Below are positions 9,288-57,480 of a stretch of 64,000 nucleotides of DNA, piece after piece (within the stretch, counting starts at the first letter, position 1; each line of letters begins with the position of its first letter). The notes under the pieces are model-generated. The model did not search any database and was not told where the DNA came from. It saw only the letters and a program-made list of their open reading frames with translations. Origin of the DNA: Escherichia coli (GTDB taxonomy: Bacteria; Pseudomonadota; Gammaproteobacteria; Enterobacterales; Enterobacteriaceae); assembly GCF_024700885.2 (NCBI RefSeq), contig NZ_CP117016.1; one strand, given 5' to 3'. A program made the translations under genes and the position numbers.

Positions 9288-9878
9288 ATGGCATTAACAG
9301 ATATCAAAGTCAGAGCAGCCAAGCCAACGGATAAGCAATATAAGCTGACTGATGGTGGCGGTATGCATCTGCTTGTCCATCCAAATGGTTCTAAGTACTG
9401 GCGTTTGCAGTACCGTTATGAGGGAAAGCAAAAAATGCTGGCACTTGGGGTTTATCCTGAAATCACACTAGCGGATGCCAGAGTACGTCGTGACGAGGCG
9501 CGTAAGCTGCTTGCGAATGGCGTCGATCCGGGAGACAAAAAGAAAAATGATAAGGTTGAACAGAGTAAAGCACGAACCTTTAAAGAAGTCGCGATTGAGT
9601 GGCATGGCACCAATAAAAAGTGGTCTGAAGATCACGCCCATCGTGTGCTAAAAAGTCTTGAAGATAATCTTTTTGCAGCGCTTGGTGAACGTAATATCGC
9701 TGAGTTAAAAACTCGAGATTTATTAGCACCTATTGTTCCTTTAACCATCCGCAATGGCCAACGGTTTACAGAGCATAATACGAATAGCCGTAGAGCCAGC
9801 CAGTTACGGTGGTCGCGATGGTGTGTCCGCCAGAAAATCACCACGAATACCAGAATCGCGGCACTGACCAGAAAATGA
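9288..9878 (+). pseudogene. P4-type tyrosine integrase (IntB-like), N-terminal ~150 aa only
   Basis: MALTD.KVRAAKPTDK...YWRLQYRYEGKQKMLALGVYPE matches the P4-integrase N-terminal arm; similarity is lost near 9740 and the catalytic domain is absent. Confidence 0.75.
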
Positions 9879-50947: not shown

Positions 50948-51517
50948 TCAACTCCGGCTACAGCCAAAATTGCGCTCACCGGTGCAGTGAGCTTTGGTAT
51001 GCTCTTTCGCCAGATAGTCAGCACGTTCCAGCACTTGCTGAAAGCCGGTGTCATCATTACGCGCCAGCCACACCGCCGGCCAGGCCGGAAAATGCACCAG
51101 CGTGGCATGGCACCCGACATCCACTCCCAGGGCACTGCACCACGCCTGTTTAATCATCCCGGCCAGAGACTCCGGAGCGCGGTAATCACCGGCACGACAC
51201 CAGGTATCCCGGTTGACCAGCAGCATCAGGTGATAGTGTTTTTTACCTTTGAACTCCCCAAACTCCCGGGCCCAGACGTAATGCAGGGGGGTGGGATGCA
51301 CGCGTTTACCTTTCCGATGCTTACGTTTCTGGTAAGCGTCGATTCGGGCTTTCAGGGCATTGATGAAGCGGGATATCACAGCTGCGTCCGTTGCTGCCGG
51401 TACATCCGGGAGACGCAGGTCAACCCGCAATGCCGTCAGGCGGGGATGAACATTCAGTGCGTGCCGCACCGTCTCACGAATACGTTGCTGCCAGAAGGGG
51501 TTGTATTTGTAGGTCAT
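50948..51517 (-). CDS. YagK/YfjJ-family (inovirus Gp2-like) protein
   Basis: Start set at MTYKYNPFWQQRIRETV; prophage-remnant family. Confidence 0.6.
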   Translation of the reverse strand: MTYKYNPFWQQRIRETVRHALNVHPRLTALRVDLRLPDVPAATDAAVISRFINALKARIDAYQKRKHRKGKRVHPTPLHYVWAREFGEFKGKKHYHLMLLVNRDTWCRAGDYRAPESLAGMIKQAWCSALGVDVGCHATLVHFPAWPAVWLARNDDTGFQQVLERADYLAKEHTKAHCTGERNFGCSRS

Positions 51518-51916: not shown

Positions 51917-53144
51917 GATAACGGTTCATGTATCCCCTGAGCTGACAGTGTACCGTGTATATTAAGCGTAACCGACAGGTTCTCCTTCATACCATATTAA
52001 ATTTTCCAGGGATTGCCGCTGCCTTATTTCGTCTCATACAGGAAAACTCATCTGGGTTTCTGACAAATACGCGAAACTCACAGCCCCTCAATATCAACCA
52101 CACGTTGTAAGCCGGTAATACCTGAAAATCAGCCTATTACCGCCCACGCCTCCGGCACCATTCCCTTTTGATTTCGAATTCTTTGTTGTCGCTATACCGC
52201 TTAATGTTCCCGGTCCTCCGGTGCAGATAACACCGGAGTCATCGTAGCGCTGCTTCAATATTCAGGTGACATATTTCCAGACGGAAGCCGGCGCGCGATC
52301 GTAAAGTTTGTTCATTGTCAGTTCTGCCAGCCGGTTGTCAACGGCAGAGTTAAAGGCTTCCAGCTCCGCAAGGGTAAGTTTATAACGCGTGTGGGAATTC
52401 ACTTTTCCCGCGTCTCCTGACGTATTACGGGCTGCCACTTACCTGGTGTCCCGCAATACAGCCTTAGTGTTCCGTTATCGGGGATCCGGACGCACCGCAA
52501 CAACCGGGGAAGTATTTCTGGTTTAGAGCATTGTCAAGAGGGATTTCTCAGCCCCTCACTCACCGCTCAGTCTCAGGGCAGGAGCATTAATACGCTCAGT
52601 TCATGTCTTATACAGGAATGGGCACAGGGGGAGCTGGCGTGTCACTGCTGATTTTACGCATCAGCGTTCATGTATCTGCACTCTGATACATGAACGATTC
52701 ACAGCGCTCTGTTACCGGAGAGATTTACTCTCTTAGCTTACTCTGGCAAATCCTTTACGTTACTCTCTGATGACTTCTTATATTTATAATACCAATCAGA
52801 CAGCCTTATCCCATCGGTGATATCAGTCTCCTCCTCGCCAGGAACGGGCTGACTCACTGTAACCACCTCCGAAAACAACTCTGCAATTATCAGAACGCCT
52901 GCTTCTCTCCCTGTCCTCACGAAAACTATCCCCTCTTTATCGCGCGTGCGTGCGGAAGCATCTTTTCGCAACAACCACCCGGTATACCGGTACGGCTCAG
53001 CCACCGCAACCTCCCCGTTTATCTCCTGGCGGTCACATTCCCGATTATTTTTTACGTTTCTCCCCGGTTGTTATGCCGGTGAAGGTGGCGCGCTGTTTTC
53101 ATGACCACACCGGCTGGTTTAACAACATCCGGAGGAACATTCTC

Positions 53145-53351
53145 ATGGCTACCCCAGTTTCACTGATGGATGACCAGATGGTCGACATGGCATTTATCAC
53201 TCAACTGAACGGCCTGACAGATAAGTGGTTTTACAGGCTCATCAGGGATGGGGCCTTTCCGGCTCCCATCAAGCTGGGCCGCAGCTCCCGCTGGCTGAAA
53301 AGTGAAGTGGAAGCCTGGCTACAGGCGCGTATTGCACAGCCCCGCCCGTAA
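53145..53351 (+). CDS. alpA: AlpA-family phage transcriptional regulator
   Basis: AFITQLNGLTDKWFYRLIRDGAFPAPIKLGRSSRWLKSEVEAWL; SD ggagga. Confidence 0.75.
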   Translation: MATPVSLMDDQMVDMAFITQLNGLTDKWFYRLIRDGAFPAPIKLGRSSRWLKSEVEAWLQARIAQPRP

Positions 53352-53445: not shown

Positions 53446-54048
53446 ATGAAACAACAGTATCAGACCCGCTACGAATGGCTCCACGAAAGCTACCAGAAAT
53501 GGCTGACCGGCTTCACCCGGCACGCCGTATCCTGGGGCGTGTGTCATCCGAATATCTACTACTTCCATAATCTGACGCCCGGTTGGGTGTCATTCAATGG
53601 TGAAAAACCGGAGATTGCCATCGTACCCCAGAGCCTGCACCGGCTGATTTATGGCCCTGACAAACGGGCCACGCCGCCCCTGGATGATGATCTGATTGTG
53701 AATTTATGCACCAGTGAACATCTGCTGGTTCATCATCCGATGCTGGAAGGCATTCTCCTGTCTGAATGTGAACGTCTGAGGCAGCGTTCTCTGGCAAATA
53801 AACTGATCAGCCTCTTCCGTCAGTTTGGTGGCACGGAGTTGCGCCTCAAACTGGTCTGGCTTTGCTGGCTTGATTTAATGACCGGAAACAGCCTTGAAGA
53901 CTGGAAAGAGAACCTGAAACGGAAATCAGAAAAAGAGCTGGAGGAATGGATCATCAACCGTCAGAGGCAGAGCGCAGCACTGACGGATCTGATGGATCAG
54001 TACGTGCTCCTGGCATACCGCACAACGGTTGACGATAGCCGCAACTGA
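53446..54048 (+). CDS. Hypothetical protein (~200 aa)
   Basis: ORF after alpA; start ambiguous (53431, 53440 or 53446). Confidence 0.45.
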   Translation: MKQQYQTRYEWLHESYQKWLTGFTRHAVSWGVCHPNIYYFHNLTPGWVSFNGEKPEIAIVPQSLHRLIYGPDKRATPPLDDDLIVNLCTSEHLLVHHPMLEGILLSECERLRQRSLANKLISLFRQFGGTELRLKLVWLCWLDLMTGNSLEDWKENLKRKSEKELEEWIINRQRQSAALTDLMDQYVLLAYRTTVDDSRN

Positions 54049-55233
54049 TGCCGGTTGCTTCCGGAAGGTGTGACAAAATACGGAAATGATGATGCTCCCG
54101 GCCCCGCATGCTCACCTGCAGAGCGTGTTCGTCGTCATCATACTGAGCCATGACGGGCGTCTTAAGGGCATCCTGTCATTGCTGAGCAGGCAACACCACC
54201 AGAGGAGCCACGGACAGGGATGTTCTTTACAGCCCGATACACGCCAGGTTCTCAGCAGACTGAATGTGCAGGTGCGGTTATTCACCAGAAATGGCATGCT
54301 GCGGTACATACCCATCCTGGTGACAATATGTACGTGGCGACAGCGATCCCGGCACTGTGGAAGAGACTCACTCAGCCTGCAGGATATTCTTTCCGGCATC
54401 CGGGAATGTCCGCCTGAATGCAAACAGGATGATATTTGAATCCGTAATACTGTTCTTTCATCATAAATAATTTATGCAGATACAGTTAACCGTTACAGTA
54501 GCCGGTTTGTTTTACCGGGAAATAATATCCGTCAGACTGATGCCGGAACATATCTGAAACACGTTATGATGTTTTGTTATCAGAAATGTTGTATATTCTT
54601 ATCCGTGGCGACAGTTTAATGCCCTCTGGTATCACCTTGGATTTGCCCCTATATTTACGGGACACGCCTCTTTTCATTGTGCTCCTTTTCAGACTTCATT
54701 TTCCGTAAGTGTTCCCCGGCATAAAGGAGGTACCTTTCTGGCGTTTATAACTCTCTTTATCGGTGACGCCGGTAATACAGGGAATACCACACCGACAAAC
54801 GAGGTATTAACAGACGATATTTCAGTGTCCATAATTTTTCTGTCCGGTTAAATAACGTCAGTCTGCTGCCCTCTGACTGTAATCATCAAAGCCGGAATGC
54901 ATACCGGGTTACAACGTAAAAAAAGTGATGCTGGCCCCCGGTGCAGCTGGCGGGCGAAACATGTTTACCTTTCAATACCCCCTGTCTGCAGTCTCCACTC
55001 TTCCATCCTCTTAAGCTACGTCGGCCACATGAGTGCACTTCCATGATAACAGGTATTCCTGTCAGCATAACGAAGCCGGTTACCTTCCCTTCCTCCTGCA
55101 TTTCCTGTCAGAATGACTGTACAGCGCGCAGATTGCCTTTTTATTGACCACCTTAATATACCATTATAAACTTCTTTTTATCATGTTATTATCACCTTAT
55201 TATGTTTAATTTTTAAGCAACCGGAGAAAGAGG

Positions 55234-56151
55234 ATGGTTCAGAAAATTTTGTCGGATAAGGTTATGAATGAAAGAACAAATGCGTATTACTCTTATTATC
55301 TTGGAGAGCGTAATATCTCCGTACTGCCCCTTAATGTTTATGATCCCCCGGAACGTTTTATCGCTTACATAAAAAAAAACAGAGAAAATCTGAACATCAC
55401 ACTTTCAGATTTTGAACTTGAACAAATCATTTCTGGTATGCGTCTGAAGGCACTGGCCTCCCTGGTGCCCCTGGAAAAAATATCCTGGATCGCGGGCAGT
55501 GAACGTGCATGCTTATTTTCCTGGTATCTGTTGATGCAGTTTATCCAGAATAACAGGACAAAAATAAGCGCAGACTTGCTTCAAAAGAATAAACTGTATC
55601 TTAAAGAAGAGTATTTAGAAGGGAATGCCTTCCCGTCGGACTCATCGACACAGTTCAGACAAATACTCAGAGTTCTCGATATTCTTTCTGATAAGAATTT
55701 GCGGGATGAGTGGATAATCCAGACCAAAGACAGATGGATGCGGGCATTTAAATCAAAGAGTCCTTTCAGTTACCTCCTCCCGGAGAACGAACATGAATGC
55801 ATATGGACATGGAATTATTTGAAGGGAAAAAATATTGCACTGGAAAAACTGGCCAGTTTTCCTGGTTCTGCTGATATTTACCACGCAATTCACCTTTCAT
55901 TTGACATATGGGTTACCTGTCCACTCACCTCACCTGACGATATAAAAAATTTCAGAAACAGTTTCAATAAGGCCAAGGCGCAGCGCAAGTACAAAAAAAT
56001 GCAGGAAGATAAAGTCAATGTACAGTTTTTTCTTGACGCAGAAACCAGGGCGCAGCTCAAAGAATTATCGAGGGTCAGAAGACTCAGTACCGGCGAAATG
56101 CTGCATGACCTGATTGTTGAAGAGTATAAAAGGTACCGACATTCCAGATAA
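55234..56151 (+). CDS. Hypothetical protein, 305 aa, AT-rich, C-terminal ribbon-helix-helix-like segment
   Basis: Strong SD (gagaaagagg); C-terminus VNVQFFLDAETRAQLKELSRVRRLSTGEMLHDLI looks like strand-helix. Confidence 0.55.
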   Translation: MVQKILSDKVMNERTNAYYSYYLGERNISVLPLNVYDPPERFIAYIKKNRENLNITLSDFELEQIISGMRLKALASLVPLEKISWIAGSERACLFSWYLLMQFIQNNRTKISADLLQKNKLYLKEEYLEGNAFPSDSSTQFRQILRVLDILSDKNLRDEWIIQTKDRWMRAFKSKSPFSYLLPENEHECIWTWNYLKGKNIALEKLASFPGSADIYHAIHLSFDIWVTCPLTSPDDIKNFRNSFNKAKAQRKYKKMQEDKVNVQFFLDAETRAQLKELSRVRRLSTGEMLHDLIVEEYKRYRHSR

Positions 56152-56235
56152 TTTCAGACATATATTATCTCCGTGAGTCCCCCACCACCTTTCCGGTGTG
56201 CGGGGGTTTTGTCTTTTTTCACCGGGAATACATGT

Positions 56236-57108
56236 ATGAATCCGTCTGATGCCATTGAGGCAATTGAAAAACCGCTCTCCTCCCTGCCTTACTCACTTTC
56301 CCGTCACATCCTGGAACATCTGCGCAAACTCACCAGTCACGAACCCGTGATTGGCATTATGGGTAAAAGCGGGGCCGGTAAATCCTCACTCTGTAATGCA
56401 CTGTTTCAGGGGGAGGTCACCCCGGTCAGTGATGTTCACGCCGGCACCCGGGAAGTGCGGCGCTTCCGTCTGAGTGGCCACGGTCACAGCATGATTATCA
56501 CTGACCTGCCCGGGGTGGGCGAGAGCCGGGACAGGGATGCAGAGTATGAAGCCCTGTACCGTGACATTCTGCCTGAACTTGACCTGGTACTGTGGCTGAT
56601 TAAAGCCGATGACCGTGCCCTGTCTGTGGATGAGTATTTCTGGCGACACATCCTGCACCGGGGACATCAGCAGGTGCTGTTTGTGGTGACGCAGGCCGAC
56701 AAAACGGAGCCCTGCCATGAATGGGATATGGCCGGCATTCAGCCTTCTCCCGCACAGGCACAGAACATTCGTGAGAAAACAGATGCGGTATTCCGGCTGT
56801 TCCGGCCCGTACATCCGGTTGTGGCCGTATCGGCCTGCACCGGCTGGGAACTGGATACGCTGGTCAGTGCGCTCATGACAGCGCTTCCCGACCATGCCGC
56901 CAGTCCCCTGATGACCCGCCTGCAGGACGAGCTGCGCACGGAATCTGTCCGGTCTCAGGCCCGTGAACAGTTTACCGGTGCGGTGGACCGGATATTTGAC
57001 ACGGCGGAGAGCGTCTGTATTGCCTCTGTTGCACGCACGGTTCTGCGTGCCGTCCGTGACTCGGTGGTCTCTGTTGCCCGCGCTGTATGGAACTGGATTT
57101 TCTTCTGA
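56236..57108 (+). CDS. yeeP: YeeP/YkfA-family GTPase (50S ribosome-binding GTPase fold), apparently intact
   Basis: G1 motif GIMGKSGAGKSS and G3 DLPG; start set at MNPSDAIEA. Confidence 0.7.
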   Translation: MNPSDAIEAIEKPLSSLPYSLSRHILEHLRKLTSHEPVIGIMGKSGAGKSSLCNALFQGEVTPVSDVHAGTREVRRFRLSGHGHSMIITDLPGVGESRDRDAEYEALYRDILPELDLVLWLIKADDRALSVDEYFWRHILHRGHQQVLFVVTQADKTEPCHEWDMAGIQPSPAQAQNIREKTDAVFRLFRPVHPVVAVSACTGWELDTLVSALMTALPDHAASPLMTRLQDELRTESVRSQAREQFTGAVDRIFDTAESVCIASVARTVLRAVRDSVVSVARAVWNWIFF

Positions 57109-57227
57109 ACACTCTGCCAGGGGAAATGCCTGATTACATTGCGTTAACCAACTGAAAACATGACACAAACACCTCATGCCCCTCCTGTTTCTCTTGCGTG
57201 ACTGCTCTGCTGTTAATAGAATAAAAC

Positions 57228-57263
57228 GATCGATAAAACAGGTATCGATCGTTACTATCGATC
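57228..57263. promoter_or_regulatory. agn43 phase-variation switch: three GATC Dam sites in the OxyR-binding region
   Basis: GATC at 57228, 57247 and 57260 within cgatcgataaaacaggtatcgatcgttactatcgatcg, upstream of flu. Confidence 0.75.
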
Positions 57264-57422
57264 GTTTATAGTGGTTAATGGTCTGCGAAAAGGCAGCTGA
57301 ATCTCTTCATCATGCAGAACGGAATTGCACACAACGGACTGATACTTCTCTGGCGGATGAGAGAGGGGAAGCATTTATGTCCGGGAAAAACCACTTTATC
57401 TGACCATGCTGTTTTGTACCTG

Positions 57423-57457
57423 CCGGTATCCACATTTGTGGGTACCGGCTTTTTTAT
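57423..57457 (+). terminator. Rho-independent terminator-like hairpin in the agn43 leader
   Basis: 11-bp stem ccggtatccac...gtgggtaccgg with one G-U pair, then CTTTTTTATT, 24 bp upstream of the flu ATG. Confidence 0.6.
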
Positions 57458-57480
57458 TCACCCTCTGTAAGGAAAAGCTG

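Follow-up and report, generated by a model that had tools for sequence, protein, structure and literature searches.

We analyzed a 64,000-nucleotide (nt) stretch of Escherichia coli DNA (hereafter, the window) around a gene for a 305-amino-acid (aa) protein, which joins three tandem copies of one helical repeat to a C-terminal tail supported, by family profiles and a dimer model, as a ribbon-helix-helix (RHH) domain. It is a member of a family that marks the regulatory junction in genomic islands of a widespread gammaproteobacterial class, and it is probably the islands' own regulator. The repeat, the overall architecture and the family are all undescribed, whereas the RHH fold class is already known. 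The gene is located as follows.

55234-56151, + strand: gene of the 305-aa family protein (WP_000250236.1), defined by its open reading frame (ORF), the RefSeq coding sequence (CDS), homologues and alignments; three helical repeats followed by a C-terminal RHH domain.

Judged from sequence comparison, the ORF is a real gene with full-length homologues (285–340 aa) down to ~17% identity. A preliminary description, made by reading the DNA alone, had proposed this ORF, and the RefSeq CDS is identical to it in start (ATG), strand and length, with the product name 'hypothetical protein'. Strain DETEC-P80 shows 100% identity over a 3.15-kb stretch around the gene, and the same CDS is annotated there in RefSeq. 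The gene is AT-rich, as had been stated (GC content 40.6%, compared to 48.5% for the window and 58.2% for the neighboring GTPase gene), and the Shine-Dalgarno sequence was also confirmed (GGAG at -11 to -8, 7 nt ahead of the ATG).

An exhaustive profile search recovered 272 cluster representatives of the family at E ≤1e-3, nearly all of them 285–340 aa long with end-to-end matches. A word-indexed search returned 28 proteins, all from Enterobacterales, and none of these matches has a Pfam domain on record. All member names that were read are 'hypothetical' or 'uncharacterised', and neither Pfam nor NCBIfam holds a model for the family. The 305-aa query itself had no match in Pfam, NCBIfam or PADLOC, and PDB sequence searches with the query and with a close alignment (A1) also gave none; in PHROGs it matched an Arc-like repressor alone (E 0.13). 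As sampled, the host range is restricted to Gammaproteobacteria, and no member was found in 50,697 phage records. A 23%-identical member is carried by 16 large plasmids of Klebsiella, Citrobacter, Raoultella and E. coli. Two PLSDB 'plasmids' (NZ_CP141089.1, 4.9 Mb; CP054241.1, 834 kb) resemble chromosomal sequence. Two candidate links to named proteins were discarded: the CP4-6 proteins YagJ and YagM of strain K-12 are not members (the family hidden Markov model has no match in that region), and the 'YtfE' names in the 90%-identity cluster of the query are a clustering artefact, BLASTP finding no similarity.

The C-terminal domain that is placed next to the DNA in our explanation has these limits.

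56011-56148, + strand: RHH domain (aa 260-305), with the strand KVNVQFFLD, helix A (269-281) and helix B (286-305), and basic KAQRKYKK ahead of it.

Over 82 members, the tail consensus runs from a basic stretch (KAW.QKK.R) through a short alternating strand and a helix to an N-cap turn and a second helix. When the 82 members were scanned singly, the tail gave weak matches to Pfam RepB-RCR_reg in 37 (best E 1.5e-4) and to RHH_1 in 18 (best E 5e-4), together with scattered matches to MatP_C (2 members), RHH_7, HicB and CopG_antitoxin; these sub-threshold matches to RHH families are recurrent and co-located. RepB-RCR_reg comprises replication regulators of rolling-circle plasmids. Searched against the PDB, the family profile matched 2kel ("Uncharacterized protein 56B"; E=0.0017, profile positions 254-299), which we take to be the SIRV1 regulator SvtR, an RHH protein, as well as CopG (positions 259-295).

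The monomer AlphaFold2 model places a low-confidence helix over the putative strand, as expected for a ribbon that forms only in the dimer. Because the ribbon needs a dimer, two copies of residues 176-305 were fused in tandem for AlphaFold2 prediction, and the family alignment was put into the same form. In both copies of this fused-dimer model, β-strands at native 260-268 are followed by helices at 269-281 and 286-305 (predicted local distance difference test [pLDDT] 73–90), and the two strands pair as an antiparallel ribbon between intertwined chains. The preliminary description had recognized an RHH-like tail and named structure prediction as a check on it; both the recurrent weak matches of family members and profile and the strand-helix-helix of the dimer model agree with that claim. 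The C-terminus is predicted to fold as RHH, contrary to the result that the description had named as refuting its idea.

The N-terminal ~250 aa were left unassigned in the same description. The sequence is indeed undescribed, but hhalign now resolves it into three tandem copies of one helical repeat.

55255-55458, + strand: helical repeat 1 (aa ~8-75), from hhalign against repeats 2 and 3.
55480-55752, + strand: helical repeat 2 (aa ~83-173), motif F.W..RAC.W.W ... PSDS..R..I..FD ... W.
55765-55983, + strand: helical repeat 3 (aa ~178-250), motif PF.YL..E..C.W.W.YL ... Y.AI..SFD.W ... F...FNKAKAQ.

Profile-profile comparisons of segments of the family alignment matched residues 60-175 to 176-250 with 98.7% probability (E 2e-16), 1-75 to 176-250 with 94.6% (E 7e-8) and 1-75 to 76-175 with 83.1% (E 9e-6), compared to a maximum of 2.1% in eight column-shuffled controls. 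The repeat unit has about three helices and ~75–90 aa, with the motifs F.W / C.W.W.Y / FD.W / W.Q, and repeat 3 is modeled as three helices in the fused dimer (pLDDT 74–90). A Foldseek search against viral structures reached a best E of 0.41.

Directly upstream of the gene lie conserved elements that are candidates for the binding sites of the protein.

55169-55208, + strand: non-coding block (-65 to -26) with the highest conservation in the locus, recognized by cross-genus identity; candidate promoter/operator.
55149-55159 and 55193-55203, + strand: two direct repeats CACCTTA[AT]TAT with 44-nt spacing; candidate binding sites.

Over the -65 to -26 block, the E. coli and Serratia sequences share 97% identity, compared to 72% for the coding sequence and 55% for third codon positions; between E. 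coli and Edwardsiella, the corresponding values are 78%, 58% and 39%. Exact CACCTTAWTAT occurs within the window only at 55149 and 55193, and the two copies flank a promoter-like TTGACC-17-TAAACT (55144-55172). Elsewhere in the family a palindrome is found: exact TACT[TA]AGTA is present once per 10–17-kb locus in six loci, always 10–64 nt upstream of the gene, TAC-N2-4-GTA lies in the last 60 nt in 8/13 loci (0.83 expected; at most 5 in 1000 shuffles), and [CT]TAC-N0-4-GTA[AG] lies within 90 nt upstream in 15/22 loci. In Morganellaceae, one to three copies are located between -55 and -17. The clade of E. coli, Serratia and Edwardsiella has the -65 to -26 block in place of a palindrome, and its predicted DNA-facing strand residues are K-N-Q-F, compared to K-x-N-Y elsewhere. 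The upstream motif signal is positional; unbiased k-mer enrichment in the upstream regions was not significant alone because the sequences are AT-rich.

To place the gene in its islands, we compared 16 loci from species-representative genomes (found with an alignment subset biased towards marine subfamilies), six non-redundant loci (contig look-ups and E. coli) and one plasmid. In the window, the island holding the gene lies at the CP4-44 position, between cobU and yeeA/sbmC, and has the gene content of a CP4-44-type island (Ag43, DUF932, antirestriction, YeeS, YeeT and CbeA/CbtA). Two of its genes recur at family loci.

50948-51517, - strand: YfjJ/YagK 'inovirus Gp2 family' gene (Pfam YagK_YfjJ_C E 1e-47; REP_ORF2-G2P 26.3 bits, cut-off 27.8).
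53145-53351, + strand: AlpA-family helix-turn-helix (HTH) gene of the island, from family search and RefSeq.

The family gene is directly divergent from the YfjJ/YagK gene in 14 loci, across a 380–1000-bp spacer with a GC content of 25–40%, and in three further loci AlpA lies between the two; the Gp2-like gene is on the opposite strand to the family gene in every locus examined. In the window, the YfjJ-like gene is displaced by ~3.7 kb through the Hha, AlpA and 200-aa protein genes. This type of neighbor matches YagK_YfjJ_C strongly and REP_ORF2-G2P at 17.3–28.8 bits, with one of five passing the cut-off of 27.8. The family gene is the first of a rightward block in Serratia, Edwardsiella, Providencia, Proteus, Budvicia and the Klebsiella plasmid, and in the enteric and plasmid loci this block consists of DUF932/antirestriction/RadC/CbtA genes. 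Marine loci contain an integrase, AlpA, the Gp2-like gene and RadC. In four marine or metagenomic loci (L007, L010, L011 and L013), the family gene is the last of the island and convergent with a tyrosine integrase, and these loci adjoin ORFs that fit yicC-rph-pyrE by size and order, the only Pfam match being YicC-like in L007. A conserved 186-aa integrase-like ORF is present in six marine or metagenomic islands (L007, L010, L012, L014, L018 and L019), of which L007 and L010 additionally carry a ~405-aa tyrosine integrase.

The same core of Int, AlpA, RadC and Gp2-like genes defines a class of Pseudomonas islands, one of which (I55) is transduced by a jumbo phage (bioRxiv 10.1101/2024.08.29.610337); the 305-aa family protein is not mentioned in that study. 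PICMI satellites have a core of integrase, AlpA and a DUF3987/DUF5906 primase and are integrated next to fis (PMC10803314). They were set aside given their other core and other integration site, on locus labels that drew on a reference set without primase or Fis.

Based on these data, we consider it fairly probable that the protein is a sequence-specific regulator from the backbone of integrase/AlpA/Gp2-like/RadC islands, acting as an RHH dimer that binds the sites upstream of its own gene, regulates itself and controls the island block that it heads, the repeats serving assembly or the reception of a signal. Two C-terminal tails would intertwine into the ribbon-helix-helix, with residues K260, N262, Q264 and F266 of the two-stranded ribbon predicted to face the major groove of DNA. 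The E. coli dimer would bind the two CACCTTA[AT]TAT repeats and the 55169-55208 block around the promoter, and in most other members the site would be the TAC..GTA palindrome. Binding would autoregulate the gene and set the transcription of the rightward block that it heads in most loci; after the family gene, this block has the GTPase (in loci that carry one) followed by DUF932, antirestriction, RadC and CbeA/CbtA. The three N-terminal repeats may mediate higher-order assembly or receive a signal.

Several points weigh against this explanation. No individual sequence matched above a curated RHH threshold in Pfam, NCBIfam, the PDB or PHROGs, the RHH fold comes from the prediction of an artificial tandem fusion, and the repeats have no structural or sequence relative that hints at a function. 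The palindrome is missing in 7/22 loci, and its pattern was defined after looking at the data, so its statistics are indicative only. Several palindromes lie very near the predicted start and could act on translation, or the starts may be mis-set. In E. coli, moreover, the gene is not at the divergent junction (AlpA and the 200-aa gene share its strand), and it is directly preceded by 1.2 kb of unexplained DNA. The analysis shows the gene, its family, the repeat architecture, the conserved position and upstream motifs and, as a model, the RHH fold; DNA binding at the candidate motifs, repression and the role of the repeats are inferred.

A different role would tie the protein to replication: the RHH dimer would bind the AT-rich spacer and help or limit the Gp2-like enzyme at an island origin, with transcription control being secondary. 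TraY acts for TraI, and CopG for RepB, as an accessory or limiting factor. The constant YagK_YfjJ_C neighbor, with its REP_ORF2-G2P matches around the Pfam threshold, is consistent with such a role, as are RepB-RCR_reg as the commonest Pfam match of the tail (37/82) and the very AT-rich spacers. However, the top rank of TraY results mainly from its double RHH on a single chain, which resembles the fused construct, and the motifs lie beside the start of the family gene, not beside the Gp2-like gene. Both the protein and its upstream block are well conserved in E. coli, even though 3.7 kb separate the family gene from the Gp2-like gene there. Neither an origin nor a nick site was identified at these loci. 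We therefore regard a function as origin or relaxosome accessory as possible but unlikely.

The second alternative concerns the GTPase gene immediately downstream.

56236-57108, + strand: YeeP/YkfA-type GTPase gene (MMR_HSR1); a neighbor, not an obligate partner.
56130-56235, + strand: GTPase gene leader, which contains a hairpin and a T-run (56179-56220) and is common to GTPase loci without the 305-aa gene.

The preliminary description suggested that the two proteins may act as a regulator or effector pair; as examined here, this would be a dedicated two-gene module with the RHH protein as regulator, antitoxin or effector partner of the YeeP-like GTPase. The spacing is close: the GTPase starts 20–90 bp downstream in E. 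coli, Serratia, Edwardsiella, Providencia and Proteus, the two genes overlap by 17 nt in one 21%-identical member, and ~93% of the gene-bearing E. coli genomes (1,256/1,349) contain the whole gene-GTPase stretch. The genome counts do not support the pair. E. coli has the GTPase gene at 9,723 places in 4,538 genomes and the 305-aa gene at 1,547 places in 1,408 genomes, i.e., at most 16% of the GTPase loci carry the 305-aa gene. Such absence from most GTPase loci is the result that the description had named as refuting its idea, with conservation of the pair as the check. Conversely, the family gene occurs without the GTPase in 12/16 loci from other species and in the Klebsiella plasmid locus. 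A GTPase gene after the family gene was seen in Enterobacterales alone (E. coli, Serratia, Edwardsiella, a Morganella/Yersinia-type contig, Providencia and Proteus; 8/10 Enterobacterales loci examined), whereas it is missing from the family loci of Amphritea, Alteromonadaceae, Pseudoalteromonas, Ferrimonas, two Vibrio, Marinobacterium, Shewanella, Psychromonas, Acinetobacter, Photobacterium, Budvicia, a metagenomic contig and the plasmid.

The DNA between the two genes leads to the same conclusion. GTPase loci without the 305-aa gene resemble the window only from 56130-56141 onwards, and the ~100-nt leader from ~56130 is 89–93% identical. The hairpin-bearing leader therefore belongs to the GTPase, for whose gene it may be a regulatory leader, and since it is common to loci without the 305-aa gene, it marks a module boundary. 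The DNA upstream of the GTPase is variable elsewhere (a type I restriction-modification system, a YfjI-family gene, an insertion sequence [IS]/mcr-1 insertion), and the 305-aa protein has no PADLOC match. Because the family gene heads the rightward block in most loci, adjacency to the GTPase is better explained by position. The 305-aa protein is thus probably not a dedicated partner of the neighboring GTPase, and we consider the two-gene module improbable. The hairpin after the 305-aa stop codon was also considered as a terminator of that gene and rejected, being part of the GTPase leader and present without the gene. The longest GTPase ORF, from GTG 56173, crosses the hairpin and T-run; the RefSeq start is ATG 56236.

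A MatP-like or partition-type organizer, in which the helical bundle and RHH bridge or condense island DNA, is very improbable: the family profile aligns with MatP over 194-301 (HMMER E 0.15; hhalign E 6e-4) and MatP_C matches two members, but the hhalign probability is only 28%, MatP is not among the 60 dimer-model matches listed, the protein ends right after helix B and so has no MatP-type C-terminal coiled coil, and each locus has a single motif cluster instead of dispersed sites.

Other features around the gene include the DNA that separates it from the preceding ORF.

54049-55148, strand not assigned: stretch without recognizable gene, co-inherited with the 305-aa gene according to genome counts and tblastn.

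The region from 54049 to 55233 had been described as AT-rich, which holds only for its last ~150 nt (GC content 36%); overall it has 46.4%, and its first 300 nt reach 55%. At ≥80% coverage, 1,285 E. coli genomes contain the whole 54049-55233 region, compared to 1,349 genomes that carry the gene. Searching it by tblastn with all island proteins revealed no gene remnant, the positive controls having worked, and its origin as a decayed YfjJ-like or other island gene was dropped on this result. Within 54049-55148 (~1.1 kb), the first ~320 nt alone recur in other contexts.

Further to the left, a 200-aa protein gene (53446-54048, + strand) adjoins AlpA; its product has no match in Pfam, NCBIfam, PADLOC or PHROGs. 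An orthologue with 61% identity is located beside AlpA in Serratia fonticola (L002 8692-9288), where the orientation of the AlpA and 200-aa gene pair is inverted compared to E. coli. An Hha/YmoA-family gene (52262-52438, - strand) lies between the YfjJ-like and AlpA genes of the island; together with the AT-rich 305-aa gene, it hints at H-NS/Hha-type silencing of the region.

On the GTPase side, the YeeP-like GTPase has weak matches to the PADLOC LeoBC and LeoA models, and in some loci a dynamin-like protein is encoded immediately after the gene for this GTPase or for Ag43/Cah. In Edwardsiella tarda (L005 12697-15938), there is a 770-aa HTH_3 + Dynamin_N protein followed by a 310-aa protein, and in E. 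coli O157:H7 (L027 10519-10873) a 'dynamin family protein' is annotated. Between the GTPase and Ag43 genes of the window lies the IsrC/IS102 small RNA (57226-57462, + strand; Rfam RF00124, 74.6 bits, E 1.5e-11), with a strong terminator-like hairpin at 57422-57449. Presumably, this RNA has the same position between the GTPase and Ag43 genes in the CP4-44 of K-12.

Most E. coli genomes contain CP4-type islands, which carry Ag43/Cah biofilm adhesins, CbtA/CbeA toxin-antitoxin pairs and antirestriction genes and differ from strain to strain upstream of the GTPase gene. Our analysis provides a candidate regulator for some of these islands, together with a candidate binding site (55149-55208). It also adds an undescribed ~75–90-aa helical repeat and a family of 272 representatives without a Pfam or NCBIfam model, and it corrects the assumption that the gene and the GTPase form a functional pair. 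A bolder version of the regulator explanation, which we regard as doubtful, is that the family is the master repressor of a large class of 'hitcher' islands with Int, AlpA, Gp2-like and RadC genes, including those of the E. coli CP4-44/CP4-57 type with their Ag43 and CbtA/CbeA genes; its three Trp-rich repeats would sense a helper. If so, the RHH dimer would keep the divergent control region shut until a helper protein, from a phage or conjugative element, binds the repeats, upon which excision, replication and transfer would start. The family would then be an RHH-based analogue of Stl of the Staphylococcus aureus pathogenicity islands (SaPI).

The comparison with Stl-type repressors is one of working principle. 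Both would combine a DNA-binding domain with a large non-DNA-binding domain at the divergent junction of an island without its own transfer machinery; however, the DNA-binding domain of Stl is HTH, not RHH, and Stl has no sequence or fold relationship to the 305-aa protein. MatP resembles the protein in having a helical bundle followed directly by RHH, with a weak alignment of ~106 columns that includes the W.W.YL motif, but it has one bundle and not three repeat units, and a C-terminal coiled coil that the 305-aa protein lacks. TraY of the F plasmid relaxosome has two RHH per chain, whereas the 305-aa protein has one, preceded by all-helical repeats unrelated to RHH, and would therefore need to form a homodimer; no relaxase or oriT was identified at family loci.

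Arc and Mnt of phage P22 share with the protein the alternating polar/hydrophobic strand (Q-F-N-L-R-W in Arc, K-V-N-V-Q-F-F-L in the 305-aa protein). There is no significant pairwise similarity to them, the RHH of the 305-aa protein is C-terminal on a 250-aa repeat region, and the family is found in 0/50,697 phage records. The likeness to CopG of pMV158 and other RepB-RCR_reg proteins consists of the modeled RHH dimer, a weak but recurrent profile similarity of the tail, a Rep-like (Gp2/G2P-type) gene nearby and a candidate pseudo-palindromic or repeated site at the promoter. However, CopG/RepB-RCR_reg proteins are 45–80 aa long and consist of RHH alone, whereas in the 305-aa protein RHH occupies only residues 260-305, behind three repeats. 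They are also co-transcribed upstream of their rep gene on small plasmids, whereas the family gene is divergent from its Rep-like gene and resides in integrated islands.

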